Assembly (NCBI GenBank): GCA_963822135.1
Contig: CAWGGI010000010.1
Span: 129,674 to 193,673 of the forward strand
DNA from: an uncultured Actinomycetota bacterium
GTDB taxonomy: Bacteria > Actinomycetota > Thermoleophilia > RBG-16-64-13
Direction: 5' to 3'
DNA length: 64,000 nt
The translations under genes were made by a program, and so were the position numbers. A model generated the notes under the pieces. It worked only from the letters and a program-made list of their open reading frames with translations. It was not told where the DNA came from and made no database searches. Each line of letters opens with the position of its first letter. Positions within the stretch are counted from its first letter, which is position 1. Shown here in pieces: positions 24,145-49,144 of this stretch.

Positions 24145-24955
24145 TCAACCCCACATGTTCATACCGCAGTTGACCGGGATGGTCTGACCCGTGATGGCGG
24201 CGGCATCGTCGGAGGCGAGGAAGACCGCCACGCGCCCCACTTCGTGCTCCTCAGCGGGGCGCCCGAGCGAGTACATCTTCATCTCGGCGGCAAGTGCCTC
24301 TTCATAGGTGATCCCCGCAGCCTGCGCCCTGCCGCCGATCATCCCCACGAAGCGCTCTCCCCGGACCGCCGCCGGGGTGATGCAGTTGACCCGGATTCTA
24401 TGGGGGCCGCACTCGCGGGCCAGGGTCTCGGTGAGGCCGATCAGGCCCATCTTCGCGCAGCAGTAGGGGGCGCGCATGGGGTAGCCCGAGCGGCCGTCAC
24501 CGGAACGGCCGCCCTCCGACCCGATGATGATGATGGTCCCTCCTCGGCCGGCCGGGCACCATGCGCCTGAGCACCTCGCGGGACGCCAGCATGCTGCCGG
24601 TCAGATCCACGGCGATGACCTCGTTCCACTCGTCGAGGGTGAGGTCCCACAGGTGTTTCGTCGGTCCGCCGATGCCGGAGTTGTTCACGAGCACGTCGAT
24701 ATGACCGAAGGCATCGACGACCCTCGCCACGCCATCGATGACATCCTGCTCGTGCCGCAGGTCCATGGGGACCGCCAGAGCCTCGACGCCGAGGGCCCGC
24801 GCCTCCGCGACCGCCGCCTCCAGGTTCTCGAGATTGCGGCCGGCTACGCAGACTGTCGCGCCTTCCTCCGCAAAGCACCTCGCGATCGCCCGACCGATGC
24901 CGGAGCCGCCGCCTGTTATGAGAACCGTCCTACCTTTCAACCTTCCACCTGACAT
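24145..24955 (-). CDS. SDR family oxidoreductase (1 frame change near 24500)
   Basis: GRTVLITGGGSGIGRA, NNSGIGG, then YCCAKMG (YxxxK), VNCITPAAV, ITGQTIPVNCG. Confidence 0.8.
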
Positions 24956-25087
24956 AGAGGTCTGCTCCTCCTCGTCGCGTTGACTCCCGGCGGACGCGCC
25001 CGAGAGCACCGGTCCCAGTCTAGTCCGACGTACAGCAGCGTACTATGCCCGTGTGCGCTCAGCAATGCTTAACGATGATGTAAATTA

Positions 25088-25209: not shown

Positions 25210-25845
25210 ATGAACGAGACCTCACCCCTCGCCCAGGCCGTGGGCGACCTCGAAGAAGACAAAGCCGTGGTCTTGGTCCAAGACAAGCTCGCCAAAGGAG
25301 AGCCGGCCCTTTCAATCCTGGAAGAACTGCAGGCCGGCATGGCGATCGTGGGCGAGAGGTTCGAGGAGGGCGAGTACTACCTCTCCGAGCTCATCTACGC
25401 CGCCGACATCTTCAAGAAGGCGGGAGCTCCGCTTCAGCAAGAACTGGCTCAGGCCGCCCAGACCAGCTGTGGCACCCTGGTCCTGGGTACGGTCAAGAAC
25501 GATATCCACGACTTCGGCAAGGACATCGTGGCTACCATCATGAGCTCCAATGGCCTCAGGGTCATCGACCTGGGGGTGAACGTGGAGCCGCAGGCCTTCG
25601 TCGATGCCATCAAGGAATCGGGCGCCACGCTCGTGGGCATGAGCTGTCTGCTCACCACCGTCTTCGATGACATGAAGCAGGCCATCCAGGCCATCAAAGA
25701 CGCCGGTCTCCGCGACAAGGTGACCATCCTCATCGGGGGCGGTCCCGTGGACCAGGCTACCGCCGACTTCGTGGGCGCCGACTACTACTGCAAGACTGCT
25801 CAAGACGGAGTGGCCGCCGCCAAGAAGGTACTGGGGGTGAGCTAG
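25210..25845 (+). CDS. cobalamin-binding corrinoid protein (MtaC/MtbC/OdmA-like)
   Basis: Intact 211 aa. N-terminal B12-binding-2 helical cap, then the Rossmann domain with the DxHxxG..SxL..GG signature (NDIHDFGKD ... GMSCLLTT ... ILIGGGPV). Confidence 0.85.
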   Translation: MNETSPLAQAVGDLEEDKAVVLVQDKLAKGEPALSILEELQAGMAIVGERFEEGEYYLSELIYAADIFKKAGAPLQQELAQAAQTSCGTLVLGTVKNDIHDFGKDIVATIMSSNGLRVIDLGVNVEPQAFVDAIKESGATLVGMSCLLTTVFDDMKQAIQAIKDAGLRDKVTILIGGGPVDQATADFVGADYYCKTAQDGVAAAKKVLGVS

Positions 25846-27012
25846 ATGTCTGAAATGCAGCACGATAGTGCACCGGCCGCCGCTCCGGGCAACGGAGCGC
25901 CCGGCTTCGCCCCGCCCCCGCTCTTCTTGGAGCGGATGACCCGGCTCCAGACCGCGATCGCCTGCGGCACTCCCGACCGGGTGCCCCTCTCCCTGGTGAT
26001 GGACCTCTTCGCCGCCAACACCATGGGCGTGAGCTATACGGACTTCGTCGCCGATGTCGACACCGCCGGACGCACCATGCTCGGCGCCATGGAGAAGCTG
26101 GGGGACGTCGATTCCATCCAGTTCCCCACCTACGCTCCCGATGTGCTCGGCATGCTGTGGCTCGCGCCCATGAAGCTCCCCGGCCGCGACCTGCCCGAGC
26201 ACGCGCAGTGGCAGATGGACGAGCAGGTGCGCATCCAGCGCGAGGACTACGACCGCATCCTCGAGATGGGCTGGACCCCCTGGCTGGGGCAGTACATCGG
26301 GAAGTACCTGGGCGCCGCCGCCGCCGCCGGCCAGGCGCTGGCCGAGGCCGGTCCTCGGTGGACCATTGAGTACATGAAGCGAGGCTATGTCGTCTTCTCG
26401 CCCTTGACAGTCGACCACCCCTTCGAGCACCTGGCGGGAGGGCGCACGGTCAAGGAGTTCACCCTCGACCTCTTCCAGATCCCCGACAAGATCGAGGCTG
26501 TTCTCGAAGTGATCATGGCCGAGAAGCGGGAGCAGTCTCGCCAGTTCGTGCGGGCCGTCGGGCAACCTGTCGGTTATTGGGTGGGAAGCTGGCGGACGGC
26601 TCCGGAGTTTCTCTCCCCGCGCCTGTGGGACCGTTTCGTGTGGCCGTATATGAAGGAGCTCGTGGAGATCGTGGCCGAAGAAGGCGGCACTCCCGTGCTC
26701 CATTACGACGCCAATTGGGACAGGGAGATCGAACGGCTGAGGGAGTTGCCCGCGCGCAGGTGCGTGCTCGAGCTCGACGGCAAGACCGACATCTTCCGGG
26801 CGAAGAAGATCCTGGCCGGCCATATGTGCCTGCTGGGCGACGTGCCCCCGGCGCTTCTCACCCTGGGCACCGCAGATGAGGTCAAGGCCTACTGCCACCG
26901 GCTGCTTACGGACGTCGGCCCCGACGGCTACATCATGGCCATGGGCTGCGCCATCCCACCCGACGCCAAGTTCGAAAACGTCAAGGCGATGGTCGACTCG
27001 GTCAAGGGGTGA
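25846..27012 (+). CDS. URO-D/MtaA-CmuA family methyltransferase (paralogue A)
   Basis: Intact 388 aa. The start abuts the corrinoid protein stop. The C-terminal half aligns with 35899-37005 (HYDANWD..LELDGKTDI..GDVPPALLTLGTADEV..GCAIPPDAKFENV). Confidence 0.7.
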   Translation: MSEMQHDSAPAAAPGNGAPGFAPPPLFLERMTRLQTAIACGTPDRVPLSLVMDLFAANTMGVSYTDFVADVDTAGRTMLGAMEKLGDVDSIQFPTYAPDVLGMLWLAPMKLPGRDLPEHAQWQMDEQVRIQREDYDRILEMGWTPWLGQYIGKYLGAAAAAGQALAEAGPRWTIEYMKRGYVVFSPLTVDHPFEHLAGGRTVKEFTLDLFQIPDKIEAVLEVIMAEKREQSRQFVRAVGQPVGYWVGSWRTAPEFLSPRLWDRFVWPYMKELVEIVAEEGGTPVLHYDANWDREIERLRELPARRCVLELDGKTDIFRAKKILAGHMCLLGDVPPALLTLGTADEVKAYCHRLLTDVGPDGYIMAMGCAIPPDAKFENVKAMVDSVKG

Positions 27013-27023
27013 CAGGCGGCGGC

Positions 27024-27947
27024 ATGCAGCCTTATACGATCTCAGAGGTGGAGCGCGCGACCGGTGTCGGCCGCGACACGATCTATTTCTACATTCGTGA
27101 AGGGCTGCTGCCCCCGGCTCAGAAGGCCAGCGCCACCCGGTCCATCTACTACCGGTCGCACGTAGAGCTGCTGCGGGAGATCGTCCGGCTGAAGGAGGAG
27201 GGTGTCAGCCTCAAAGCGATTCGAGCCCGTCTGCGTGATCGCATCGAGGCCGCAGCGGATGCCGGGGTCGATCTGGTGGCCAAGCAGAGCGAGGACGCGC
27301 GCAACGCAATCCTGCAGGCAGCCGCGCGCCGTTTCGCCCAACGAGGGTACGAGCGGACCCGGATAGCGGATCTGTGCGAGGAGGTCGGCATCACCGCCCA
27401 AGTGCTCTACAGTCACTTTCCCAGCAAGCGGCATCTTTTCATCAACTGCTACGAGGTCTACTTCGCCTGGATGTACGCGCGTGTTCAGCCGGCCATCGAC
27501 GATACCGACGATCTCAACGCCCGTCTTGCTTGGCGCAGCTGGGCATCGTATGGCATCCAGGCGTTCAGTCCAGATCTCCAGGCGATGGCGCGAGCAGAGG
27601 CGATCCATCCCGAGAGCGACCTGCGTCCGCTGGTACGAGAGCTCTACGGCAAGATCCTGGAGAGCACGGTACAGGAACTCAGTGCGGAGCGGCGCCCAGG
27701 AGCCAATCCCGGGCTCTTCGAAGACGAACTCGTGGCTTATGCATTCGAGGGCGCGTTGGGGAACATGCAGATGCGGGCGTCGTGGGACGAGAGGTACAGC
27801 AGACGCGACGTCATGCGTACACTCCTCTCCATGTACATGGCCGTGCGTGCTGCCTATGACGGCCGGGTCGACCTGAGTGACGAGTGGCGGGTTGTCTCCG
27901 GAGTGGTCGACACACTGGCTGCCAGCAGCCCGACGCGAGCGACGTGA
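27024..27947 (+). CDS. MerR-TetR fusion transcriptional regulator
   Basis: Residues about 4-70 form a MerR HTH (YTISEVERATGVGRDTIYFYIREGLL..Y..HVELLREIVRLKEEGVSL). Residues about 95-140 form a TetR HTH (ARNAILQAAARRFAQRGYERTRIADLCEEVGITAQVLYSHFPSKRHLF), followed by a TetR-like C-terminal domain. Confidence 0.75.
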   Translation: MQPYTISEVERATGVGRDTIYFYIREGLLPPAQKASATRSIYYRSHVELLREIVRLKEEGVSLKAIRARLRDRIEAAADAGVDLVAKQSEDARNAILQAAARRFAQRGYERTRIADLCEEVGITAQVLYSHFPSKRHLFINCYEVYFAWMYARVQPAIDDTDDLNARLAWRSWASYGIQAFSPDLQAMARAEAIHPESDLRPLVRELYGKILESTVQELSAERRPGANPGLFEDELVAYAFEGALGNMQMRASWDERYSRRDVMRTLLSMYMAVRAAYDGRVDLSDEWRVVSGVVDTLAASSPTRAT

Positions 27948-28040: not shown

Positions 28041-29045
28041 GTGAAAGTTCTTGGCATCTCGTGCGGCCGGCGCATGAGCAACACCGAGATCATGGTCAAA
28101 GAGGCCCTGATGGGGGCCGAGGAAGCGGGTGCCGAGGTCCAGTTCCTGCGCCTGCAGGACTACTACATCAAGCCCTGCACCGGGTGCAACTCCTGTGTGG
28201 TCGATCTTATGGAGAAGCACGGCGGCGGCGCCTGCGTGCTCCGCAACGACGACTTCCCTTTCATCGACGACCTGATCATGGACTGCGACGCCCTCATCCT
28301 GGGCTCGCCCATCTACGAGAAATCCCCGAGTGGCCAGCTGAAATCGCTGCAGGACCGCATGGGCCCCAGCCACGACGTCGGCTTCCGCATGATCGCCCAG
28401 AAGATGCGCGAGGAGAAAGGCATCACCACCGGCACGGGTCCCGACCCGCGGGCGTTCAAGCCCCGCACCGCTTCGCTGATCGCCGTCGGCGGGAGCGAGT
28501 GGGATACCCTGGCGCTACCCACCATGGGCATGTTCGCTCTCACGCACCAGATGACCGTCGTCGACCAGATCCTCATCAACTGGATCGGGCTGCCCAAAGT
28601 CGTCACCTTCCACGAGGACAAGCTGGCGCGGGCGCACCGCTCCGGCAAGCACGTGGTGGAGAGCTATTTTAAGGGCGTGGAGAACGCGGAGTACATCGGT
28701 GAGGAAGGTCTCTGCCCGATGTGCCACTGCAAGCTCATCGAGATCCGCAACGGCCACGATCCCTATCCGGCTGTCTGTGGTATGTGCGGCGTGCGCGGCA
28801 CGTTGACCACCGACGCCGACGGCAAAGTCTTCTTCGACGTCAAGGAAGAGGACAGAGTCCACTCGCACCTGCTGCTCTCGGGCAAGTTCGAGCATCTGCA
28901 GGAGCTGGCGGACGTGTCCCTCAAGCCGCCGGCGAACTACCACGAGGTCAACGACCGGGCTAAGAAGTACCGCGAGTATCTGACTCCGATCAAGCCTCCG
29001 GCGCGCGACAAGGGCGAGAAGCCGGAACAGGGCGAAGAGGTCTAG
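28041..29045 (+). CDS. iron-sulfur flavoprotein (Isf)-like, flavodoxin-fold, with C-terminal 4-Cys ribbon domain (paralogue 1)
   Basis: Intact 334 aa. GISCGRRMSNTE, Cys cluster CTGCNSC..(12)..C, then the flavodoxin-like LILGSPIYEKSPSG. The C-terminal pair is CPMCHC...CGMCG. Confidence 0.6.
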   Translation: MKVLGISCGRRMSNTEIMVKEALMGAEEAGAEVQFLRLQDYYIKPCTGCNSCVVDLMEKHGGGACVLRNDDFPFIDDLIMDCDALILGSPIYEKSPSGQLKSLQDRMGPSHDVGFRMIAQKMREEKGITTGTGPDPRAFKPRTASLIAVGGSEWDTLALPTMGMFALTHQMTVVDQILINWIGLPKVVTFHEDKLARAHRSGKHVVESYFKGVENAEYIGEEGLCPMCHCKLIEIRNGHDPYPAVCGMCGVRGTLTTDADGKVFFDVKEEDRVHSHLLLSGKFEHLQELADVSLKPPANYHEVNDRAKKYREYLTPIKPPARDKGEKPEQGEEV

Positions 29046-29047
29046 CC

Positions 29048-29881
29048 ATGGCGTACTTCCCGGAATTCCGCCCCATGCGGAGCTTCATCCTGCAGAACTT
29101 CCGCTCCGACAACGATCGCCCGGCCATCTGGCGTTGGCTCTACAAGCAGCACGTGCCGGAGAGCATCTCTCAGTTCATGCCCTACTGCACCAAGTACTGC
29201 ACATACCACGCCCTGCCGCTACCCGAGGGCGCCAAGGACTTCGGTACCTACAACGGGATGATGACCGAGCACTACTGGCTCTTCAACATCTTCCAGGACA
29301 AAGGCACCGGCATGCCCCGCGGCCTGGCCTTTGGCGAGGAGTTCCCGGAAGACTTCATGGAGCGCACGAGCCAGCCGCCCAGCAAGGAACTGCGGCAGTC
29401 CGGTTGGCAGGGAAGCCGCGACGGTTACCATCCCATAGTCTTCTCGTTCGCACCCATCTTCTGGGAGGACGACTTCAAGGGGGAGGGCCGGCTCACCGAC
29501 GCCGGGCCCAACTACCGCTGGCTCTTCTTACTGAAATACCCGGACGGCGTCTCCGTCGATGAGGGCGACGCCTGGTTCAAGGAAGTGTTCGCGCCCGAGA
29601 TCTGCGCCAACCCCGAGGTGAACCGCATGATCTCCAGCCGCCAGCTGGACGACCCGCGGATCAACCCCTTCCAGCGCATCGTCGAGGTCTGGTTCGACGA
29701 CTCGGAGGGGTGGCGCCGCGCGATGGTGAAGAAGGCGGACACGTACACCAAGCCGGCGTGGGCGACCTGGGACCGGGCGCCCTTCTTCGAGCCCTACAAG
29801 GACTTCGTGGGGATCTTCATCCTCGACCGGCCCGACTCCGACCACCTGCAGCAATGGCGGGGGTATATCACGACGAGGTAG
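29048..29881 (+). CDS. hypothetical protein, possibly tandem EthD-like (dimeric alpha/beta-barrel) domains
   Basis: Intact 277 aa, 2 nt after the Isf-like gene. The second half (LKYPDGVSVDEGDAWFKEVFAPEI...RIVEVWFDDSEGWRRAM) resembles EthD-type domains. Recognised by eye only. Confidence 0.35.
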   Translation: MAYFPEFRPMRSFILQNFRSDNDRPAIWRWLYKQHVPESISQFMPYCTKYCTYHALPLPEGAKDFGTYNGMMTEHYWLFNIFQDKGTGMPRGLAFGEEFPEDFMERTSQPPSKELRQSGWQGSRDGYHPIVFSFAPIFWEDDFKGEGRLTDAGPNYRWLFLLKYPDGVSVDEGDAWFKEVFAPEICANPEVNRMISSRQLDDPRINPFQRIVEVWFDDSEGWRRAMVKKADTYTKPAWATWDRAPFFEPYKDFVGIFILDRPDSDHLQQWRGYITTR

Positions 29882-29935: not shown

Positions 29936-30580
29936 CTAGATTTCGGACTCCACGTCGTCTTGCGGCACCCGTTCTGGGCGGAGGGAGTCAAGCATCCGCT
30001 TGACGTTGCGGCTGAGGATGCCTTCGTCGATGAACTCTCGGGCGCCGGCCATGACGGAAATGTCCTCGACCCAGGCGAACATCTGCAGGGCCCAGGCCAC
30101 GTCTTCGGGGAGAACATCCTCGCTGATGGAGCCTTGACGCTTGCCTTCCTCGGCGATGGCGACAAGGGCCTTGTGGATGCGGAAGTCGGTGATCCTCAGA
30201 GGGGGGTCGCCGCTGTCTGGGTGTCTGGAGGCCAGTTCCAGAAAGAACGGGCGCACCACGCTATTGAAGTGCTCCCTCGCCCATGCGGCATGAGTCTTGG
30301 TCAACTCCTCCAGACGCTGCAGTGCATCTGGGTTTGCCGAGGAATCCACCCAGTTCATCGCGCGCTCGTTGGCCAACTGATTCGCCTCCGATAGCAACGC
30401 TGCTCGGTTATCGAAGTGCCGGTAGAGCGCCCCGGGGGTGACTCCGACGGCAGCCGCGATCCGCGATACCGTCGCACCCTCGAGGCCATGTTCGCTGATG
30501 ACCCGGAGCGTGGCGTCGAGTATCTCCTCGCGCCGCTCCTGCTGGCTCTTCCGCGTATGGCTCTTCACGTAGCTGGACAT
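29936..30580 (-). CDS. TetR/AcrR family transcriptional regulator (paralogue of 57500-58189)
   Basis: Intact 214 aa. The HTH is ATVSRIAAAVGVTPGALYRHFDNRAALL. Divergent from the liv-type operon. Confidence 0.85.
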   Translation of the reverse strand: MSSYVKSHTRKSQQERREEILDATLRVISEHGLEGATVSRIAAAVGVTPGALYRHFDNRAALLSEANQLANERAMNWVDSSANPDALQRLEELTKTHAAWAREHFNSVVRPFFLELASRHPDSGDPPLRITDFRIHKALVAIAEEGKRQGSISEDVLPEDVAWALQMFAWVEDISVMAGAREFIDEGILSRNVKRMLDSLRPERVPQDDVESEI

Positions 30581-30681: not shown

Positions 30682-30781
30682 AGTAAAGCAGCATTTACGT
30701 GAATAAATTTTACGAGAAGTCTGGTCGCGTCCCTGACGCGATGCGAGCGTGGTAATTGCGGTATCCGCCAGGGGGGACCGA

Positions 30782-31659
30782 TTGGTCAAGTGGATCCAGT
30801 TGCTGGTCACCGGGATCACGGTGGGGAGCATCTACTCCCTGATCGCGCTGGGCTACGTGACCATCTACCGGACCTCACGCATCGTCAATATGGCCCAGGG
30901 CGCCTTTGTCATGTTCGGCGCCTTCTTCGCGTTTTCGTTCCTGTCTGAGCTCGGTCTGCCCTACTGGCTCTCAGCCATCCTCTCGATCGTGTGCGTGGTG
31001 CTCTGGGTGTGGTCATGTACCTGTTGGTGCTGCGGCCTCTCGTCAAGATCTCGCTCGTCTCCATCATCTTGGCCACCATGGCGCTGAGCATCCTGTTCGA
31101 GAACGTCGCGCTGCTCAAGTGGGGGGGCTACGGTAAGAGCGTCCCGGCTTTCACCGGCGACCAAGCCCTCTTCATCGGCAAGGTGGCGGTCTTCCCGCAG
31201 AGCCTGTGGGTGATCGGGCTGATGATCCTGGTGCTCATTGGCCTCTACGCGCTCATCAACCTGACCCGCGTGGGCAAGCAGATGACTGCGACGGCCAACG
31301 ACCCCGGCGCCGCCAGTCTGTCCGGCGTTAACACGGGCAGGATGATCCTCCTGGCCTTTGCCATCTCGGCCGCCATCGGGGCCCTGGGCGGTATCGCCAT
31401 CACTCCCATCAACTCGACCTCGTACCTTTCGGGAGGCATCTTTGCTCTGAGCGGCTTCGTGGCCGCCATCCTGGGGGGGTGGGGGTCGAGCGTAGGGGCT
31501 GTGGTGGGCGGCCTCACCCTGGGGATCATCCAGTCTTTGACCACGGGCTTCCTGCCCGCGGGATATCAGGACGCCATCGCCTATCTCGTGCTCATCCTCA
31601 TCCTCTACTTCCGGCCCGGCGGTATCATCGGTCAGCCTTCGGCCGAGGGCGAGGCGTGA
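30782..31659 (+). CDS. livH: branched-chain-amino-acid-type ABC transporter permease LivH (1 frame change near 31000)
   Basis: LVTGITVGSIYSLIALGYVTIYRTSRIVNMAQGAF.. then VMYLLVLRPL..ATANDPGAASLSGVN..LYFRPGGI. TTG 30782 is taken as the start. Confidence 0.8.
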
Positions 31660-32729
31660 TGCAGCGTCTCGCCTTCATGAAGAGCCAAAGCTTCCTCTTC
31701 AAGGCTCTGCTCCTCGTCATCCTGTTGATATGGCCACTCCTCTATCAGAGCGGATACGCCATGCGCATAATGACCACGGGTGGTCTCTACACCATCATCA
31801 CCATCGCGGTGGTCATCATCCTGGGCCAGGCCGGGCAGCTGTCGTTCGGCCATTCGGCCTTCTACGGCATCGGCGCGTACACCGCCGCGATGCTTACCAT
31901 GAAGGCCGGGTTCCCCACCCTGGCCGCTCTGGTCATCGGGGCCTTGGTGGCCGGTGTCATCGCTCTCATCGTGGGCCGGCCGGTGCTCAGGCTGCGCTAC
32001 TTCTATCTGGCCTTGGCTACCATCGGCCTGGGCCAGATCTTCCTGGTGCTGATCCAGCAACTTCGGACCATCACCGGCTCGACCACCGGGCTCGCCCCCG
32101 TGCCCTATCTCAGCATCTTCGGCTTCGATTTCAACACCAACCTCCGCCAGTACTACCTGGTGTGGGTGGCGGCCGCGATCATCATCGTCTTCATCGACCG
32201 GGCCCTCAAGTACCGGGCCGGGCGGGCTCTGCGCGCCATCGCCACCAGTGAGATCGCCTCCAAGAGCTTGGGCGTCCGCACGGCCAACTGGAAGCTTCTC
32301 GCCTTCGTTGCGAGCGCCATCATCTGCGGGTTGGCCGGTGGCTTCTACGCCTTCGTCAGCATGGCCGTCACGCCCGGGGCTTTCACCTTCACCGCCGCCA
32401 TCCTCCCCATCGTCATGATGCTGCTGGGCGGGGGGACCGTCTGGGGGTCGGTCGTGGGGGCCATCCTCATGACCTGGGTCATCAACGGGTTCTCCGGCGT
32501 CCAGCAGTACAGCGGAGTGCTCTATTCGGTCATCATGATCCTCCTGCTCATATTCCTTCCCGCCGGGCTGCTGCTGCGGCCCGATCAGCGGGCTCGTCTC
32601 AAGGCCCTGGTTCGGCGGGAGAGACTGCAAGAGCCGGCCCAATGCCTCGTCGCGGCCGAGGAAGGGCGAGGCTGCCGGCCAGTGCACCACGACGGTGGGC
32701 ATGCCCCTGGCCGTATCGCCGGGGGTTGA
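31658..32729 (+). CDS. livM: branched-chain-amino-acid-type ABC transporter permease LivM
   Basis: ATG 31658 overlaps the livH stop (ATGA). ILGQAGQLSFGHSAFYGIGAYTAA, RAGRALRAIATSEIASKSLGV. Confidence 0.8.
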
Positions 32730-33650
32730 GCCGGTCGGCCGCGGCCGAGATCGCCGGCGCGGGACAGGCTGCTGCAGCGGCGCCCGCCACGCGGACCGAG
32801 ACCTTGGATACTGCGGGCGCGCCGCTCCTGGCCATCAAAGACGTCTCTGTCCACTTCGGCGGACTCAAGGCTGTCGATGAGGTCTCGCTCGAGGTGCATG
32901 AGGGACAGATCGTGGCCCTCATCGGTCCCAATGGCGCCGGCAAGACCACGCTGTTCAACGCGGTCAGCCGCCTGCAGAAGCTTACCGGGGGTACGGTGGA
33001 GTTCGCTGGGCAAGAGGTCATCAAGCTTTCGACCGCGAACACCGCCCGCTTGGGTATGGCCCGGACCTTCCAGAACCTGCGCATCTACGTGAACATGACC
33101 GTGCTCGAGAACGTCCTGGTGGGCTGCCATCAGCACGAGCGCTCCGGGTTCTGGGCGGGCGGCCTGGGTCTGCCGCATCAGCGGCGCGAGGAGAAGGCAT
33201 CGCGCGAGCGGGCCCTTCGAGCCTTGGCGGCGGTGGGCTTGGCCGACAAGGCCTTCCTGCCGGCCGCCAGTCTGCCCTATGGCTCTCAGCGCCTGGTGGA
33301 GATCGCTCGGGCGCTCGCGTCTGAACCCCGGCTTGCTTCTTCTCGACGAGCCGGCTGCCGGCATGAACGCGGCGGAACGCGCCCATCTGGTGGAGCAGAT
33401 CCGCGGCATCCGGGACTCCGGCATCACCGTGCTGCTGGTCGAGCACGATATAGAACTGGTCATGGGGATCTCCGAGCAGGTCTACGTCCTCGACTACGGG
33501 CGGTTGATCGCCCAGGGCAGGCCCGAGGTGGTGCAGAACGACCCGGCCGTCATCGAAGCCTACTTGGGGGTCAAGCTGGAGCATCGGCAGGACCTGTGCC
33601 AGACGCGGGAGCTCACGGACGGCAGTTGTCCCGAGCCGGAAGACCTCCTG
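32726..33650 (+). CDS. livG: ABC transporter ATP-binding protein LivG (1 frame change near 33320); no stop before livF
   Basis: TTG 32726 overlaps the livM stop. Walker A GPNGAGKTT, signature LPYGSQRLVEIARAL, Walker B LLLLDEPAAG, C-terminus VIEAYLG. The frame then runs on uninterrupted into the LivF module. Confidence 0.75.
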
Positions 33651-34361
33651 GTGGTGGAGGGTCTCACCACCTCATATGGCTCCATCGAAGCCCTGCACGG
33701 GGTCTCGTTCGCCGTTCCCAAGGGAGAGGTGGTCACGATCCTGGGTGCGAACGGAGCGGGCAAGAGCACGCTGCTCCACACCATTTCCGGCCTGCTGCGG
33801 CCCAAAGCCGGCAGCGTCACCTACCAGGGGACCGACATCACCCATCTGGCGCCGGAGAAGATCGCGGCCCGCGGGCTGTGCCAGGTACCCGAGGGGCGGC
33901 GGCTCTTCCGGGAGCTCTCGGTGCAGGACAACCTGGTTGTGGGGAGTTCGGGCCGCAAGGATTGGCGGGGGACCCTGGCCGACGATATCGCCTACGTGTA
34001 TGAGCTGTTCCCCATCCTGGGCGAGCGGCGCAGGCAACCGGCGGGGACTCTCTCCGGCGGGGAGCAGCAGATGCTGGCCATCGGCCGGGCCCTCATCGGC
34101 CGGCCCCGATTGCTGCTCCTTGACGAGCCCTCCATGGGGCTGGCTCCGCTGGTGGTGGAGCGCATATTCGAGGCGCTGGCCCAACTCAACAAGGACGGTC
34201 TCACCATGCTGATGGTGGAGCAGAGCGCCGAGATGGCGCTCTCGCTGGCCCACCGCGGCATCGTCCTGCAGACCGGCCAGGTGGTCGTCTCCGGTCTGGC
34301 GGAGGTTCTCAAGACGGACGATCGCGTGCAGGCGAGCTATCTCGGCACAGCTCGACAGTAG
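33651..34361 (+). CDS. livF: ABC transporter ATP-binding protein LivF module (in frame with livG)
   Basis: LLVVEGLTTSYG, Walker A GANGAGKST, LSGGEQQMLAIGRAL, LLLLDEPSMG. An internal GTG at 33651/33654 could act as an independent start. Confidence 0.75.
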   Translation: MVEGLTTSYGSIEALHGVSFAVPKGEVVTILGANGAGKSTLLHTISGLLRPKAGSVTYQGTDITHLAPEKIAARGLCQVPEGRRLFRELSVQDNLVVGSSGRKDWRGTLADDIAYVYELFPILGERRRQPAGTLSGGEQQMLAIGRALIGRPRLLLLDEPSMGLAPLVVERIFEALAQLNKDGLTMLMVEQSAEMALSLAHRGIVLQTGQVVVSGLAEVLKTDDRVQASYLGTARQ

Positions 34362-35898: not shown

Positions 35899-37005
35899 AT
35901 GGACTCATTCGAGAAGCTGCACCGGGCGATAGCCCTCCAGCCTACGCCGGAGATCCCGGTGTACCCGCATATCGTTACGTTCGCCGGCCGCTGCGCCGGC
36001 ATCACCCAGGAGAGACTGTTCAGCAGCAATCAGGCCTGGCTCGATGCCTGCGACAGGACCTTCGCCCGGGTTGGCAAACCCGACGTGGTCTTTCCCCTCA
36101 ACCCCCGCGACACCGCCTACATCGAGTCGATGCGGGTGAAGCTTCCCGGCAAGGAACTCGGCCCCGACGAGCCCTTCCAGTTCGTGGAAGACGAGTTCAT
36201 GCTGGCCTCCGACTACGACGTGATCCTCACGAAGGGCTGGAACGCCTGGAACACCGAGTTCATGAAGAAGATCCAGAATCCGCCGCTCACCGGACCCCTG
36301 GCCAAGTACAAGGTCCTGTGGGGCTTCATCCGCACCGGTATGAACACCGGCAAGAACATCAAGCATTGGGCGGAGCACGGGATGCCGGTGATGTTTCACG
36401 TCGGAGTGGCTCCGCCGTTCGACGTGTTCTCGCTGTCGCGCTCGCTTCGTCCCTTCTACCGCGATCTGTTCGACAACCCGGACAAGGTCAAGAAGGCCGT
36501 CGAGGTGGGCACCGACGCCATGATCGAGCTGGGCATCGCCAACGCCAAGCGGGCCAAGGGCGACCGGGTGGCCATCTTCGCCATGCGCTCGAGCGCCAGC
36601 TTCATCTCGCCCACGATCTTCGACGAGATCTCTTTCCCCTCGATCAAGCGGATGGTGGAGGCCTACCACGCCGCCGGCCTCACCTCGGTGCTTCACTGCG
36701 ATGGTAACTGGGACCTCATGATCCCCCGCTTCCTCGAGCTGCCCAAAGCAAGCTGCGTGGTGGAACTGGACGGAGCCACCGACATCCGCAAGGCTCGGGA
36801 GGTACTCAAGGGCCACCTGTGCATCAAAGGCGACGTCCACCACGCGCTGCTCGCCCTCGGCACCGCTGAGGAAGTCACCGCCTACTGCGGCGAGCTCCTC
36901 GAGTTCATGGGCCATGACGGCGGCTTCATCCTGGGCTCCGGCTGCGAGGTGCCCATCACGGCCAAGGTGGAGAACGTGGCGGCGCTCATCGCCGCGGTGC
37001 GGTAG
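35899..37005 (+). CDS. URO-D/MtaA-CmuA family methyltransferase (paralogue B)
   Basis: Intact 368 aa from MDSFEKLH. LHCDGNWD..VELDGATDI..GDVHHALLALGTAEEV..GSGCEVPITAKVENV is collinear with paralogue A. Confidence 0.7.
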   Translation: MDSFEKLHRAIALQPTPEIPVYPHIVTFAGRCAGITQERLFSSNQAWLDACDRTFARVGKPDVVFPLNPRDTAYIESMRVKLPGKELGPDEPFQFVEDEFMLASDYDVILTKGWNAWNTEFMKKIQNPPLTGPLAKYKVLWGFIRTGMNTGKNIKHWAEHGMPVMFHVGVAPPFDVFSLSRSLRPFYRDLFDNPDKVKKAVEVGTDAMIELGIANAKRAKGDRVAIFAMRSSASFISPTIFDEISFPSIKRMVEAYHAAGLTSVLHCDGNWDLMIPRFLELPKASCVVELDGATDIRKAREVLKGHLCIKGDVHHALLALGTAEEVTAYCGELLEFMGHDGGFILGSGCEVPITAKVENVAALIAAVR

Positions 37006-37046: not shown

Positions 37047-37961
37047 GTGAGCAAGACGATCGTCGGCCTCTCGTGTGGCCGCCGGAACAGCAACAGCGAG
37101 GTTCTCCTCAAGGCGGCGCTCATGGCCGCGGAGGAAGAGGGCTGCGAGACCAAGATCATCCGGGCGATGGACCACAAGGTGACGCCCTGTAACTCCTGCT
37201 GGACCTGCATGAAGACCGGCACGTGCGCCAAGGACGATACCGACTGGATCCTCGAACAGACCCTGCTCGGAGACGCCGGCGTCATCGTATCGGCCCCGGT
37301 CTACCACCTGCGCGCCTGCAGCTACCTCATGATCATCGCCGAGAAGACCAACCACATGTTCTCCCGCAAAGAGAACATCTTCGAGCGCAAGCGCCCGGGC
37401 GCGGCCATCTCCGTGGGCGGCTCCGGCTATGACGGCTGGACCAGCCTGGGGCTCACCTCCATCAACCTGTTCCTGCAGCACTTCACCACCCTCGTCGACC
37501 AAGTGCAGGTGGACCACTGCGCCAACATCGCCGCCGCGCTCACCCCCGACAACGCCTGGGCCATCGAGCGCTGCCGGCAGCTGGGCAAGAACATGGCCAA
37601 GACCCTGGACACGCCCTTCGAGGAGTGGAAGTTCCTCGGCCAGGACCCGGCCGTGGCCTGCCCGGTGTGTCACTGCAACATCCTCTACGTGGAGAAGGAC
37701 TTCCCGGAGATCATGTGCCCCACCTGCGAGGTGCACGGCACGATCTCGCCCGACGCGAACGGCAAGTACTCCGTCGCCTGGAACGAAGACGACGTCCGTG
37801 AGCCGCGCTTCTCCGGCCCCAAGGAGGCCCATCACCTGCACTGGATAACCGAGCACGAGTGGGTGGAGGAGCCCAAGCAACTGGCGCTGCCGGAGGTGCA
37901 GGCCAAGATCGCCGAGTTCAACGCTTGGGGCGCCTACATATCGGCGCCGAAGAAGCGGTAG
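37047..37961 (+). CDS. iron-sulfur flavoprotein (Isf)-like with C-terminal 4-Cys ribbon domain (paralogue 2)
   Basis: Intact 304 aa. GLSCGRRNSNSE, compact Isf cluster motif CNSCWTCMKTGTC (Cx2Cx2Cx5C). The C-terminal pair is CPVCHC...CPTCE. Confidence 0.6.
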   Translation: MSKTIVGLSCGRRNSNSEVLLKAALMAAEEEGCETKIIRAMDHKVTPCNSCWTCMKTGTCAKDDTDWILEQTLLGDAGVIVSAPVYHLRACSYLMIIAEKTNHMFSRKENIFERKRPGAAISVGGSGYDGWTSLGLTSINLFLQHFTTLVDQVQVDHCANIAAALTPDNAWAIERCRQLGKNMAKTLDTPFEEWKFLGQDPAVACPVCHCNILYVEKDFPEIMCPTCEVHGTISPDANGKYSVAWNEDDVREPRFSGPKEAHHLHWITEHEWVEEPKQLALPEVQAKIAEFNAWGAYISAPKKR

Positions 37962-37987: not shown

Positions 37988-38231
37988 ATGGCCGACTCAG
38001 AGCCACTATGAAGCCAAGACCCAACTCTCGCGCATGGTCGATCGGGCTGCCGCCGGCGAGGAAATCGTGATCTCTCGCAACGGCAGGCCGGTAGCCCGTC
38101 TGTGTCCGCTCGAGCCTAGGAAGCGGAACACAGTGAAGTTCGGGCTGCTCGACGGACTCATCGAGGTGGCAGACGATTTCGACGCGCCGCTCCCCGATGA
38201 CATCCTTGCGGCGTTCGAGGGGCGGGACTGA
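37988..38231 (+). CDS. Phd/YefM family type II antitoxin (1 frame change near 38010)
   Basis: ATG 37988 reads MADSEPL, then in the +1 frame YEAKTQLSRMVDRAAAGEEIVISRNGRPVARL..DFDAPLPDDILAAFEG. Confidence 0.7.
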
Positions 38232-38604
38232 GAGTTCTCTTGACACCCATCTGTTCCTCTGGGCAGTGGGGGTGAGTTCGAGGCTCACTCCTGCGGCGAA
38301 GACTGCGATCGAAGGCGCGGATGAGGTGTATGTGAGCGCGGCGTCGCTCTGGGAGATCGCCGTCAAGGCTGGTACCGGAAAACTGCGGGCAGATGTGGAC
38401 CGACTGATCGCAACAGTCGATTCGAGCGGCTTCCTCGAACTCTACGTCACAGCGGAGCACGCGGCGTTCGTGGCGCAGTTGCCTCATTATCACCACGATC
38501 CCTTCGATCGACTGCTGATCGCTCAGGCCATGACAGAGCCCCTCGTTCTTCTCACAGCCGACGAGTCGCTCGTTCAGTACACGGATCTGGTGCGGCTTGT
38601 CTAG
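38197..38604 (+). CDS. PIN-domain (VapC-like) type II toxin; start uncertain
   Basis: LDTHLFLWAV...ASLWEIAVKAGTGKL...HHDPFDRLLIAQAMTEPLVLLTAD. The expected start at the antitoxin stop (about 38229) is not in frame, so either an indel or the upstream ATG 38197 applies. Confidence 0.7.
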   Translation: MTSLRRSRGGTESSLDTHLFLWAVGVSSRLTPAAKTAIEGADEVYVSAASLWEIAVKAGTGKLRADVDRLIATVDSSGFLELYVTAEHAAFVAQLPHYHHDPFDRLLIAQAMTEPLVLLTADESLVQYTDLVRLV

Positions 38605-45789: not shown

Positions 45790-48321
45790 ATGGCAGAGAA
45801 GACCTTCGTGAACTGTACCGGTGGGGGCCCGATACGGGTCCATGTGGACGACGGCAAGATAACCAAGGTCCGTCCGCTGGTCTTTGACAAGACCGACGCA
45901 CCCTCGTGGACCATCGAGGCCGACGGCAAGAAGTACTCGCCGCCGCGCAAGGCCTGCGTGGCCACGTTCACCCTCACCGAGCGGGCACGCATCTACTCCG
46001 ACGACCGCATCATGTATCCCATGAAGCGGGTGGATTTCGATCCCAAGGGCGCTCCCGGCTCGACCGGAAAGGGCGGCCGCAACGCTCAGAACCGGGGCAA
46101 GTCGCCGTACGAGCGCATCAGCTGGGAGGAGGCGTTCGAGCTGGTGGGGAGCGAGATGATCCGCATCCGCGAGACCTACGGGCCCGAAGCCATCACCTCC
46201 CGCGCCTCCTCGCACCACAACTGGGGCAACGTCGGTTACCGCACCGGGGCCTGGGCCCGCTTCTTCAGCCTCATCGGCTTCACCGACATCTTCGACAACC
46301 CGGACAGCTGGGAAGGCTGGCATTGGGGCGCCACTCACACGTTCGGCTTCTACTGGCGGCTGGGCAATCCCGAGCATTACGACATGCTCGAGGACAACCT
46401 CAAGCACACCGAGCTCATCATCCACTGGGGCAACGACTGCGACACCACCCACGGCATCTACGGCGGCAACGAGTCGGCGCAGTGGCGGCTGTGGTTCCGG
46501 GACAAGGGTGTCAAGCAGATCTTCCTCGATCCCTATTTCAACTACACCGCCGCCCACGTGGGCGACAAGTGGATCTCGTACCGGCCGGGCACCACGTCGG
46601 CCCTGGCGCTCGGCATCGCCCACGTCTGGCTGACGGAGGGCACCTACGACAAGGAATACGTGGCTGCCAAGACCCTCGGCTTCGACGAGTTCAAGGCCTA
46701 TGTCCTTGGCGAGAGCGATGGCGTGCCCAAGACGCCGGAATGGGCGGCCGAGGTCTCCGACGTACCGGCCCGCACCATCGTCGCGCTGGCTCGGGAATGG
46801 GCGTCGCACCGCACCTGCCTCGCCGGCGGCACCAAAGGCGGCGAGGGCGGCTACTGCCGTCAGGCGTACGCCACCGAGCACGCCCGGATGCTGGTGCTTC
46901 TGCAGGCGATGCAGGGACTGGGCAAGCCGGGTGTGGCCATCTGGGGGACGGCCAACGGGCCGCCCTACAACCACACCCTCGACTTCCCCGGCTACGCGAG
47001 CGGGGCCTGCTTCAACCTGATGGCCGAGAAGCCGGTCAACAACCCGGTCAAGCAGCGCCTGTACCGGCTGACGGTGCCCGACGCGATCCTGGACGGGTCG
47101 ACGAGCTGGCTCGGCCAGACCTTCTGCGGCCAGTCGCTGGAACAGCAGTTCATGCCTTACACGTATCCGATGCCGGGTCATTCCGAAGTCAAGATGTTCT
47201 ACCGCTATGGCGGCGCCTTCCTTTCGACCATGGTCGACACCAACAAGTGGGTGCGGATGTACCAGAGCCCGAAGTTGGAGTTCGTGGTCAACCAGGACTG
47301 CTGGTTCTCCACCGAGACCCGGATGGCCGACGTCATCCTGCCGGCCTGCACCAACCTGGAGCGGGACGACATCAGCGAGTATGCGAGTTCGGGCGGCTAC
47401 TCGCTGCACGCTTCGGGCAGCGCCAACCATCGGATCATCATCTACCAGCAGAAGTGCATCGAACCCATCGGCGAGTCCAAGTCCGACTACGACATCTTCT
47501 GCGGCCTGGCCAAGAAGCTCGGCGTGTACGAGGAGTACACGGAGGGCAACACCTGGGAGCAGTGGATCGAGAAGATGTTCTACAAGTCGGACCTGCCCCA
47601 GTACGTCAAGTTCAAGGACTTCAAGAAGAAGGGCTACTTCCTGGTCCCGCAGATCGCCGACTACAAGCCCACCCCGGCGCTTCGCTGGTGGTATGAGGAC
47701 CGGGAGTGCGACACCCCCGACTTCGGCAACCCGAAGCGCGGCACCCAGAAGGCCAACGAGCTGGGCACCTACAGCGGCAAGATCGAGTTCGTGTCGCAGA
47801 GTCTGAAGGCCCATCTGCCCGACGACGAAGAACGGCCGCCCCTGCCGCGATACATCCCGAGCTGGGAAGGTCACGAGTCGGAGGCGTTCAAGCAGTATCC
47901 GCTTGCGCTCATCTCGCCGCACCCGCGGTTCACCTTCCACACCCACCACGACCACCATGTGCCCTGGTTGTCGGAGATCCCCGGACACCGCCTGCCCAAC
48001 GGCGGCTACTACTACTGGGTCGCCCGGGTACACCCGACCGATGCCGAGGCCAGGGACATCAAGCACGGCGACGTCATCGAGCTGTACAACGACAGGGCCT
48101 CGGTCCTCTGCGTGGCTCACGTGACCGAACGAGCCCGGCCGGGAGTGGTGCATTCGTACGAAGGCTCCGCCAGCTACGATCCCATCGAGCCGGGCAAGGC
48201 CGGGACCACCGACCGTGGCGGCTGCGTCAACCTGCTCACGCCGGGACGCATGCTCTCCCAGAACGTGCCGGGTATGGCTCCCAATTCCTGTCTGATCGAG
48301 ATCCGGAAGTGGGAGGCCTGA
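45790..48321 (+). CDS. molybdopterin oxidoreductase, pyrogallol-phloroglucinol transhydroxylase large-subunit (AthL)-like / resorcinol hydroxylase-like
   Basis: Intact 843 aa with no TAT signal and no N-terminal Cys cluster. YERISWEEA, SSHHNWGNVGYR, NPDSWEGWHWG, ILPACTNLERDDISE, SPHPRFTFHT and DRGGCVNLLTP match, from memory, blocks of the Pelobacter acidigallici enzyme. Confidence 0.7.
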   Translation: MAEKTFVNCTGGGPIRVHVDDGKITKVRPLVFDKTDAPSWTIEADGKKYSPPRKACVATFTLTERARIYSDDRIMYPMKRVDFDPKGAPGSTGKGGRNAQNRGKSPYERISWEEAFELVGSEMIRIRETYGPEAITSRASSHHNWGNVGYRTGAWARFFSLIGFTDIFDNPDSWEGWHWGATHTFGFYWRLGNPEHYDMLEDNLKHTELIIHWGNDCDTTHGIYGGNESAQWRLWFRDKGVKQIFLDPYFNYTAAHVGDKWISYRPGTTSALALGIAHVWLTEGTYDKEYVAAKTLGFDEFKAYVLGESDGVPKTPEWAAEVSDVPARTIVALAREWASHRTCLAGGTKGGEGGYCRQAYATEHARMLVLLQAMQGLGKPGVAIWGTANGPPYNHTLDFPGYASGACFNLMAEKPVNNPVKQRLYRLTVPDAILDGSTSWLGQTFCGQSLEQQFMPYTYPMPGHSEVKMFYRYGGAFLSTMVDTNKWVRMYQSPKLEFVVNQDCWFSTETRMADVILPACTNLERDDISEYASSGGYSLHASGSANHRIIIYQQKCIEPIGESKSDYDIFCGLAKKLGVYEEYTEGNTWEQWIEKMFYKSDLPQYVKFKDFKKKGYFLVPQIADYKPTPALRWWYEDRECDTPDFGNPKRGTQKANELGTYSGKIEFVSQSLKAHLPDDEERPPLPRYIPSWEGHESEAFKQYPLALISPHPRFTFHTHHDHHVPWLSEIPGHRLPNGGYYYWVARVHPTDAEARDIKHGDVIELYNDRASVLCVAHVTERARPGVVHSYEGSASYDPIEPGKAGTTDRGGCVNLLTPGRMLSQNVPGMAPNSCLIEIRKWEA

Positions 48322-48322
48322 G

Positions 48323-49144
48323 ATGACCCGGTATGGAATGGTCATAGACGTCACCAAGTGTAACGGCTGCTACAACTGCTTCATCACCTGCAAGGACGAG
48401 CACTGCGAGATCGACCACAAGCCCTACGCGGTCGGCCAGCCTCTGACCGGTCAGACCTGGATGAAGGTCATCGAGAAGGAACGGGGTCGTTATCCCAAGG
48501 TCAAGGTCGACTACATCGCGATCCCCTGCATGCAGTGCGAGGACCCCGCGTGCGCCGTGGCCGATCCGAAAGCCGTCACCAAGCGGAAGGACGGCATCGT
48601 CATCATCGACCCGGGCAAGGCCGTCGGCAACAAGGACGTGGTCACTCACTGCCCCTACCGCGCGGTCTACTGGAACGAAGAGAAGCAGGTCGGGCAGAAA
48701 TGCACCTTCTGCGCCCACCTGCTCGACAAGGGCTGGAAGGAGCCCCGCTGCGTGGAGGCCTGTCCCACCGGCGCCTTGATCTTCGGTGACCTCGACGATC
48801 CCAACAGCGAGGTGGCCACGCTGGTCGCCTCCGGCAAGACCGAGGCCTTCGGTCCCTACGGACTGGAGGAGAAGGTCCGTTACATCGGTCTGCCCAAGGA
48901 GTTCGTGGCCGGTGCGGTGGTGTTCGGCGACAAGGACGAGTGCGCCAAGGGTGTGACCGTGACCCTGGTGGGCCCGGATGACGCCGCCGCCACGACCGTG
49001 ACCGACGGCTTCGGCGACTTCGAGTTCGAGGGCCTGCCGGCCAACACGGCCTACACGGTGAAGATCGCTGCTGCGGGCTACGCGGCGAAGGAGATCCCGG
49101 TCAAGACCTCCCGGTCGGTGTACCTGGGGGACATCATCCTGTAG
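48323..49144 (+). CDS. Fe-S subunit, transhydroxylase small-subunit (BthL)-like: three 4Fe-4S motifs plus a C-terminal Ig-like/carboxypeptidase-regulatory-like domain
   Basis: Intact 273 aa, starting 1 nt after the large subunit. CNGCYNCFITCKDEH, CMQCEDPAC, CTFCAHL...CVEACP. The tail GVTVTLVG..TDGFGDFEFEGLPANTAYTVKIAAAGY is a typical beta-sandwich. Confidence 0.75.
   Translation: MTRYGMVIDVTKCNGCYNCFITCKDEHCEIDHKPYAVGQPLTGQTWMKVIEKERGRYPKVKVDYIAIPCMQCEDPACAVADPKAVTKRKDGIVIIDPGKAVGNKDVVTHCPYRAVYWNEEKQVGQKCTFCAHLLDKGWKEPRCVEACPTGALIFGDLDDPNSEVATLVASGKTEAFGPYGLEEKVRYIGLPKEFVAGAVVFGDKDECAKGVTVTLVGPDDAAATTVTDGFGDFEFEGLPANTAYTVKIAAAGYAAKEIPVKTSRSVYLGDIIL

Follow-up and report, generated by a model that had tools for sequence, protein, structure and literature searches.

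The closest described relative of the two proteins considered here is the flavone reductase (FLR) of Flavonifractor plautii ATCC 49531 (A4U99_05915), a homodimeric flavin mononucleotide (FMN) enzyme with a flavodoxin-like core, which is represented by the crystal structures 7D38 (the FLR-chrysin complex), 7D39, 7D3A and 7D3B (Yang et al. 2021, PMC7862272). The two proteins, termed P0001 and P0002, are encoded in a 64,000-nucleotide stretch of contig CAWGGI010000010.1 from an uncultured Actinomycetota bacterium; the whole of this stretch is referred to below as the window. Overall, both genes appear to belong to the FLR family: P0001 would act as a flavone/flavonol reductase and P0002 as a second ene-reductase, and their conserved cysteines would form a zinc site and a [4Fe-4S] site. 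The probability of this combined reading is estimated at roughly 75%.

The FLR subunit consists of an N-terminal domain of alpha-beta-alpha type (residues 1-202), a long loop and an extended domain at the C-terminus, in which the four-stranded subdomain 1 packs on its dimer twin and a bent helix (subdomain 2) reaches around the adjacent monomer, acting as a lid that shuts its FMN/substrate pocket (PMC7862272). The FMN and substrate residues named are E91, K92, D103, G106, G146, S147, W149, H271, I275 and P307. In particular, H271A is inactive, I275A is nearly so, G106A loses approx. 97% of the activity, and activity is also lost after removal of the last 11 residues (PMC7862272). FLR is not able to use NAD(P)H, and its electron chain was called unknown by the authors (PMC7862272); the assays ran on FMNH2 made by Fre. 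The enzyme was discovered through its genomic association with chalcone isomerase (CHI), and in Clostridium butyricum the gene order is flr-fcr-phy. According to reviews, polymethoxyflavones such as tangeretin and nobiletin are not reduced by F. plautii FLR.

The family was delimited by its authors at identity of at least 30% and coverage of at least 80%, which gave 391 homologues; 12 enzymes were assayed, and apigenin was reduced by 11 of the 11 assayed FLR homologues, which came from Firmicutes, Fusobacteria, Spirochaetes, Streptomyces and fungi (PMC7862272). The validated FLR of C. ljungdahlii is only about 28-30% identical to FLR; it is absent among the 120 homologue matches listed in our analysis.

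Relation of P0001 and P0002 to the flavone reductase family

The sequence-only reading described P0001 and P0002 as duplicated, collinear proteins with an N-terminal Cys cluster, a flavodoxin-like core and a C-terminal extension, and took this architecture to be undescribed. The genes, together with the CHI gene next to P0001, are as follows.

28041..29045, + strand: P0001, 334 amino acids, GTG start, GGGAG Shine-Dalgarno sequence, intact; FLR orthologue of clade A
28875..28919, + strand: P0001 lid helix with H285 and L289, equivalent to FLR H271 and I275 by alignment
29048..29881, + strand: bacterial CHI, Pfam Chalcone_N E 9.3e-26; starts 2 nucleotides past the P0001 stop
37047..37961, + strand: P0002, 304 amino acids, GTG start, AGGAG Shine-Dalgarno sequence, intact; FLR-like flavoprotein of clade B

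Pairwise alignment bears out the collinear relationship: in BLASTP, P0001 and P0002 match with E 2e-31 and 27% identity over 279 columns, from the N-terminus to the C-terminal Cys pairs, and this similarity is far above chance level. The N-terminal motifs quoted in the earlier reading, GISCGRRMSNTE / GLSCGRRNSNSE, are found in P0001/P0002, and two further CxxC pairs follow approx. 160-180 residues downstream of the N-terminal Cys motif, within CPMCHC...CGMCGVRGT in P0001 and CPVCHC...CPTCEVHGT in P0002. All of the N-terminal, Cys-cluster and C-terminal motifs proposed earlier are thus present in both open reading frames (ORFs). The flavodoxin-like core is likewise recovered, as FMN_red (PF03358), which spans the N-terminal approx. 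150-175 residues, is the sole Pfam domain in either protein; for the C-terminal approx. 120 amino acids alone, no curated Pfam model scores above threshold.

A tree of three homologue samples (F. plautii-type FLRs, P0001-type and P0002-type proteins) resolves into three groups, each of them monophyletic, at supports of 1.0, 0.89 and 1.0. P0001 and P0002, which belong to clades A and B, respectively, are ancient paralogues, each with orthologues in several phyla. That they are paralogous FMN_red proteins agrees with the sequence-only reading. A recent duplication is rejected, as the two proteins are 26% identical in the family alignment and fall into separate, well-supported clades.

The relationship of P0001 to FLR is seen at the levels of sequence, fold and gene order. 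In a phmmer search of the PDB, P0001 matches 7d38_A with E 1.2e-63, residues 2-319 aligning with residues 2-307 of 310, through the C-terminal Cys pairs. The identity of 38.5% over 304 columns lies within the threshold set by the FLR authors. The AlphaFold2 (AF2) model of P0001 has a pLDDT (predicted local distance difference test) of 87.8 and finds 7d38 as its top Foldseek match (E 7.2e-26); for P0002, the corresponding values are a pLDDT of 88.8 and a top match to 7d38 with E 6.9e-18. In both rankings 7d38 is followed by WrbA, azoreductase and NQO-type FMN_red proteins. WrbA and other NAD(P)H:quinone oxidoreductase-type proteins, the second-best fold matches, share the core fold but lack the Cys motifs and the C-terminal domain. 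The FLR authors likewise compared FLR with WrbA, and E. coli WrbA has no flavone reductase activity (PMC7862272). The global root mean square deviation of the AF2 monomer models from 7d38 is large, as the extended arm is placed differently. The idea of an undescribed architecture does not stand, as the four crystal structures of the FLR family include the C-terminal extension. For P0001 in particular, this is essentially the outcome that the sequence-only reading had named as its refutation: a known C-terminal domain with a role unrelated to corrinoid enzymes.

FLR, P0001 and P0002 have in common the flavodoxin-like FMN core, the long loop, a beta-ribbon, the bent-helix lid, the tail and eight Cys residues. 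P0001 shares with FLR, in addition, the FMN/substrate residues and the pairing with CHI: E91, K92, D103, G106, G146, S147, W149, H271 and P307 are kept in P0001 and in 117-119 of 119 clade A members, and I275 is changed conservatively to Leu. The lid and tail residues of P0001 are thus H285, L289 and P319 (the last equivalent to FLR P307). P0001 differs from FLR in belonging to a separate clade (35-43% identity to FLR), in its charged C-terminus, which is 24 amino acids longer, and in its host, an uncultured high-GC actinobacterium as opposed to a gut Firmicute. Clade A also holds proteins of Caloramator sp. E03 and Paenibacillus polymyxa/peoriae, and both taxa appear in the 72-FLR list of the FLR paper.

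The product of the adjoining gene aligns over its full length with Eubacterium ramulus CHI (4d06/3zph; E 1.5e-52, residues 6-277 against 5-283), and the FLR_A-CHI pair is found again in five related loci (L016, L017, L019, L021 and L026). Because of the FLR homology, the kept residues, the adjoining CHI and the recurrence of this pair, we read P0001 as a predicted flavone reductase and 28041-29881 as a putative flr-chi operon, converting flavone to flavanone and then to chalcone. A flavone would lie stacked with the flavin of P0001 on one side and the lid (His285, Leu289) on the other, and reduced FMN would transfer hydride to its C2=C3 bond, yielding a flavanone; the CHI encoded 2 nucleotides downstream would then open the C-ring. 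P0001 adds one more member to an established family of solved structure and stands in the expected genomic pairing.

Some observations weigh against this assignment. No assayed enzyme is demonstrable within the clade of P0001 itself, and FLR K282 and T305 are replaced by Leu and Ile in P0001. Moreover, neither Fcr/EnoR nor phloretin hydrolase was found in the window, so that the pathway is incomplete here.

Eight conserved cysteines and their candidate metals

With the architecture of the two proteins already known, two features stand out: conserved cysteines that apparently have never been explained, and clade B. The cysteines form two groups of four in each protein.

28176..28235, + strand: P0001 N-terminal Cys motif, C46-x2-C49-x2-C52-x12-C65; candidate [4Fe-4S] ligands
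28713..28787, + strand: P0001 C-terminal four-Cys site, C225-x2-C228 ... C246-x2-C249; candidate zinc ribbon in FLR subdomain 1
37188..37226, + strand: P0002 compact Cys motif, C48-x2-C51-x2-C54-x5-C60; Isf-type spacing
37659..37727, + strand: P0002 C-terminal four-Cys site, C205-x2-C208 ... C224-x2-C227; invariant in 99/99 clade B members

In each of the three clades the eight positions are invariant (119/119 in clade A, 98-99/99 in clade B and 39/39 in the F. plautii clade). A search of 1.8 billion cluster representatives with the clade B profile gave 879 proteins at E<=1e-10, of which 112 also passed E<=1e-30. Among 107 full-length representatives of this broad family, the C-terminal four Cys are found in 104-107 and the N-terminal four in 90-95; in the same set, the equivalent of H271 is kept in 102, that of I275 in 53 (with L, V or M in another 43) and that of P307 in 80. 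Despite this conservation in a structurally solved family whose electron donor is unknown, no comment on the cysteines was found in the searched literature: the words zinc, iron, metal, Cys and cysteine are absent from the FLR paper and its supplements (PMC7862272), in which the Cys-rich loop is likewise passed over, and the literature search returned no paper that ties flavone reductase to iron-sulfur or ferredoxin.

The sequence-only reading likened the N-terminal motif to that of the iron-sulfur flavoprotein (Isf) and regarded the C-terminal four-Cys domain as an addition to the classical Isf layout, and in both respects it was correct. Isf is a single-domain protein of about 190-200 amino acids that lacks the C-terminal ribbon, the lid and the tail. 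The Isf proteins of Methanosarcina thermophila and Archaeoglobus fulgidus share with P0001 and P0002 the FMN_red fold and a CX2CX2C...C motif, in P0002 exactly CX2CX2CX5C. In Isf, CX2CX2CX5-7C is considered to provide the ligands of a [4Fe-4S] cluster, and the compact spacing, given as CX2CX2CX4-7C, is matched by CX2CX2CX5C of P0002 but not by CX2CX2CX12C of P0001 (PMC3164229). Membership in the Isf family itself did not hold up. Neither protein has any NCBIfam match, and no Isf chain occurs among the PDB sequence matches at E<=1 or the top 50 Foldseek matches, a PDB set in which the presence of Isf is unconfirmed. As there is no sequence or fold match and the architecture differs, neither protein is classed as Isf; the likeness of the motif is nevertheless real.

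The C-terminal four Cys most likely would form a structural zinc ribbon at the dimer interface; in the AF2 models they lie among short beta strands that match the four-stranded subdomain 1 of FLR. Profile searches of this region give sub-threshold Pfam zinc-ribbon matches for P0002 and none for P0001, a weak match of the clade B profile to the LysW zinc ribbon (E 0.76), and PF08271 as a precomputed assignment on a few FLR homologues. The N-terminal four Cys, in turn, most likely would form an oxygen-labile, Isf-type [4Fe-4S] electron entry site that is bypassed in the Fre/FMNH2 assay. Judged by motif and conservation, the N-terminal [4Fe-4S] would feed electrons to FMN and the C-terminal zinc would hold the ribbon. 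Extended to the FLR family as a whole, this would mean that all of its members are iron-sulfur flavoproteins, which inherited the N-terminal motif from an Isf-like ancestor and receive their electrons physiologically through a labile [4Fe-4S] cluster, e.g., from ferredoxin; this wider proposal is tentative, and we put it at somewhat under even odds. If true, such an entry site would account for the failure of FLR on NAD(P)H and for its unexplained electron chain. As a corollary, clade B, with its compact Isf spacing and rebuilt pocket, may have been recruited to supply low-potential electrons to partner enzymes, among them the corrinoid O-demethylase of these actinobacteria, seemingly devoid of an activase.

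The published data on FLR speak against a cluster and lend weight to a different explanation, in which all eight Cys are purely structural, forming two Zn(Cys)4 sites or disulfides, and the reductant is free reduced flavin or another diffusible compound. According to the refinement statistics, ligand atoms number 34 in the apo structure and 53, 54 and 55 in the chrysin, apigenin and luteolin complexes (PMC7862272, Supplementary Table 3). After subtraction of FMN (31 atoms) and the flavone (19, 20 and 21 atoms), three ligand atoms are left in each of the four structures. Because these are too few for Fe4S4 or Fe2S2, neither cluster is modelled in the FLR crystals; the leftover atoms may be ions, or formate from the magnesium formate crystallisation solution. 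Purified FLR shows only flavin peaks, at 373 and 449 nm (PMC7862272), and it functions in vitro on Fre-generated FMNH2. In addition, the enzyme is active after ordinary expression in E. coli in LB, the available part of the paper describing no anaerobic purification (PMC7862272); the N-terminal cysteines may accordingly bind zinc or nothing essential. The fourth Cys of P0001, at x12, also departs from the compact Isf spacing. On the other side, the first three Cys correspond exactly to the CX2CX2C of Isf and clade B has the full compact motif. Moreover, 290 of the 310 FLR residues are modelled, leaving approx. 20 unmodelled (PMC7862272), and a labile cluster could have been lost from LB-grown protein. 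The inability of FLR to use NAD(P)H, together with an electron chain that its authors could not name, also weighs against cysteines of purely structural function. Taken together, an entirely structural role is possible, at odds distinctly below even.

Clade B and the function of P0002

P0002 is a more distant relative of FLR than P0001. It matches 7d38_A with E 2.4e-15 (phmmer, PDB), and the clade B profile matches 7d38 with E 1.5e-32, positions 4-300 aligning with 2-309. Apart from the fold, P0002 has in common with FLR the lid His and Ile, the equivalent of Trp149 and the tail Pro; H263, I267 and P301 are its lid and tail residues. In clade B as a whole, the equivalents of G146, S147 and W149 are retained (W149 in 98/99), as are the lid His (98/99), the stacking Ile/Leu of the lid and the tail Pro (91/99). 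In contrast to FLR, P0002 has approx. 20 residues fewer in the insertion after helix alpha-4, and its pocket carries H87-L88-E99-N102 in place of E91-K92-D103-G106. These exchanges (E91 to H, K92 to L/V/I, D103 to E and G106 to N) are nearly invariant in clade B.

Three points count against P0002 as a flavone reductase, or leave room for another role. Its identity to FLR, 25.9%, is under the 30% threshold of the FLR authors; it departs from FLR at four pocket positions, including G106, at which the change to Ala is so costly; and its conserved neighbours vary between phyla, which fits an electron-donor role too. P0002 thus partly misses membership in the FLR family, by identity and by four pocket residues, and the name flavone reductase is premature. 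Clade B is a separate, uncharacterised sister clade of FLR, confined to uncultured anaerobes: all 44 loci recovered are from uncultured metagenome-assembled genomes (MAGs) of Actinomycetota (Gaiellales and Thermoleophilia among them), Dehalococcoidales, Chloroflexia, Acidobacteriota, Desulfobacterales and Phycisphaerae.

The gene order around clade B follows two patterns. In Actinomycetota, the clade B gene lies directly beside URO-D and/or B12-binding genes in 14 of 18 loci, and the typical order is TetR (- strand), LivABC, binding protein, URO-D, FLR_B, corrinoid protein, URO-D. In 11 non-actinobacterial loci, FLR_B is followed by a gene for a 482-amino-acid FAD_binding_2 protein and then by one for a 570-amino-acid CocE/NonD hydrolase. 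Loci with this triad include L032, L033, L036-L039, L041 and L044, as well as, e.g., L011:8001-12117; they come from Dehalococcoidales, Chloroflexia, Acidobacteriota and relatives, and their genes are often translationally coupled. The 570-amino-acid hydrolase matches CocE/NonD structures, whereas the similarity of the FAD protein to flavocytochrome c3 fumarate reductase and to urocanate reductase is limited to their FAD/clamp part. This FAD protein has no electron-input domain of its own. Compared with flr-fcr-phy of C. butyricum, the triad is alike in order and logic, but the proteins are unrelated.

Because the lid is kept, validated FLRs may have an identity of only 28-30%, and the triad resembles flr-fcr-phy in order, we favour P0002 as a catalytic ene-reductase with a different substrate, to which we assign about even odds. 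The substrate most likely would be a different flavonoid or a phenylpropanoid.

Alternatively, clade B proteins, including P0002, may be Fe-S/FMN electron-input partners of a neighbouring enzyme rather than substrate reductases. The partner would be the FAD protein in Dehalococcoidales, Chloroflexia and Acidobacteriota, or a component of the corrinoid methyltransferase in Actinomycetota. This is consistent with the position of FLR_B directly 5' of the FAD_binding_2 gene in the 11 loci outside Actinomycetota (in L011 the two genes overlap), with the lack of an electron-input domain in the FAD protein, and with a clade B pocket that is systematically unlike that of catalytic FLRs. There is also a precedent in phenolic metabolism: in Lactiplantibacillus plantarum, HcrA, a member of the FMN-reductase family, and HcrB, an FRD-like hydroxycinnamate reductase, together make up a heterodimer (PMC10295242). 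The likeness of this pair to the clade B and FAD_binding_2 pairs outside Actinomycetota is one of description; neither an FLR-type tail nor the Cys motifs are reported for HcrA, and the window contains no such pair, no FAD_binding_2 gene adjoining P0002. However, clade B conserves the lid His, the stacking hydrophobic residue, the Trp149 equivalent and the tail to the same degree as catalytic FLRs do, and a lid above the flavin fits poorly with protein-to-protein electron transfer. The FAD enzyme and the hydrolase can equally be read as non-homologous replacements of Fcr and Phy. We therefore regard an electron-input function as unlikely and retain the ene-reductase reading for P0002.

As a sister of FLR found only in MAGs, with a distinct pocket and two conserved operon contexts, clade B is a target for substrate discovery in anaerobic polyphenol turnover.

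Several further features accompany clade B genes in related loci. The FLR_A-CHI pair and an LVIVD beta-propeller are often found near actinobacterial clade B genes; propellers of this type, approx. 440 amino acids long, lie near FLR/CHI genes at L019:13147-14262, L026:15986-17320, L027:15226-16560, L045:10895-12217 and L002:14648-15958, and none is found in the window. In the O-demethylase-type operon of the relative L002, the clade B gene is followed by those for a corrinoid protein and a URO-D methyltransferase, for a CobW-type GTPase and for an EthD-annotated protein of 282 amino acids (L002:11105-11800, L002:12837-13685), the last of which has the length of a bacterial chalcone isomerase. 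At L021 (= L008):10989-11208, a Fer2 (2Fe-2S ferredoxin-type) ORF that runs into the contig end starts immediately behind the clade B gene; it could encode a ferredoxin, or a larger redox protein of which this is the N-terminus.

Corrinoid genes and the surrounding locus

Both flavoprotein genes lie among parts of a corrinoid-dependent methyltransferase system. The main neighbouring features of the window are listed below.

25210..25845, + strand: corrinoid (B12-binding) protein of an O-demethylase-type module; Pfam B12-binding and B12-binding_2, NCBIfam MtbC/MtgC-like under cut-offs
25846..27012, + strand: URO-D/MtaA-family methyltransferase A; Pfam URO-D E 9e-28, NCBIfam MtaA/CmuA-like under cut-off
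27009..27947, + strand: MerR + TetR_N hybrid regulator, flanked by the methyltransferase module and flr-chi; Pfam MerR_1 residues 9-76, TetR_N 101-145
29936..30580, - strand: TetR regulator, Pfam TetR_N, divergent from the ABC transporter; the same position is filled in L002
30749..35722, + strand: Liv-type ABC importer (LivH, LivM-G-F, binding protein); LivH and LivM-G-F frame-shifted
35899..37005, + strand: URO-D/MtaA-family methyltransferase B; Pfam URO-D E 2.4e-27, NCBIfam MtaA-like under cut-off; ends 41 nucleotides 5' of P0002

P0002 has no adjoining CHI in the window, yet it lies in the same locus as the flr-chi pair. The locus looks like an anaerobic flavonoid/polyphenol island with corrinoid O-demethylase parts, judged from its gene content. 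Because FLR does not reduce polymethoxyflavones, an O-demethylase beside flr-chi would make metabolic sense: the corrinoid protein and the two URO-D-type methyltransferases most likely would strip methyl groups from methoxylated flavonoids, which are poor FLR substrates. The order of reactions would then be demethylation, reduction and ring opening. An flr-chi pair amid O-demethylase parts mostly explains the locus and would extend the flavonoid pathway of gut bacteria to uncultured soil/sediment Actinomycetota. The polyphenol-catabolic setting is further supported by a pyrogallol-transhydroxylase-like molybdopterin enzyme, encoded at 45790-49144 with an Fe-S / CarboxypepD_reg small subunit and adjoined by acyl-CoA dehydrogenase, EtfAB and an HdrD-like membrane Fe-S protein.

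The sequence-only reading also implied a link of the FLR-like proteins to corrinoid enzymes: they would stand in for the RACE/RamA-type reductive activator that the cluster lacks and take the cobalt of the corrinoid protein from Co(II) to Co(I). Such a link fails for P0001, as the C-terminal domain of FLR serves the dimer and the lid, and survives for clade B insofar as its genes lie within actinobacterial corrinoid operons. In the window, as in the 14 of 18 actinobacterial loci mentioned above, the clade B gene adjoins URO-D or B12-binding genes on the same strand, and no RACE/RamA-like activase gene is found among the window ORFs or in the inspected flanks of relatives. An activator with a flavodoxin fold is not absurd, given that flavodoxin reactivates E. 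coli methionine synthase from its cob(II)alamin state. Nevertheless, an activase role, which is a narrower form of the electron-donor idea and a minority hypothesis for P0002 only, is very improbable, since P0001 already has its explanation as an FLR with CHI as its partner, in at least five other phyla no corrinoid genes adjoin those of clade B, the ASKHA-type ATPase and Fe-S domains that are the hallmark of RACE/RamA are not matched (Pfam gives FMN_red only, with no RACo/ATPase domain), the substrate lid is kept, the actinobacterial loci are 66-90% identical, so that the adjacency is essentially one evolutionary event, and the absence of an activase extends to the window and inspected flanks, not to the rest of the genome.

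The MerR/TetR_N regulator gene overlaps the stop codon of the upstream methyltransferase gene by 4 nucleotides. Elsewhere in the window, several short-chain dehydrogenases/reductases (SDRs), esterases, an aldo-keto reductase and an HpcH-type aldolase are encoded; SDRs and esterases, like the transhydroxylase-like Mo enzyme, are characteristic of polyphenol breakdown. As proposed earlier, P0001 and P0002 are intact amid frame-shifted neighbours. Comparison with intact L002 homologues (tblastn) places frame switches near 30964-31003, 32669-32816 and 33327-33334 in the LivH and LivM-G-F genes (the frame-shifted region is 30749-34361, and the last switch falls at a CCCC run), and an SDR gene at 24145-25009 is split. 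Because similar gene splits occur on related MAG contigs, the frame shifts may be assembly indels rather than gene decay. Both in the window (38197-38604) and in a Gaiellales relative (L016:11255-11632), the clade B gene is closely followed by one for a VapC-like toxin with a PIN domain.

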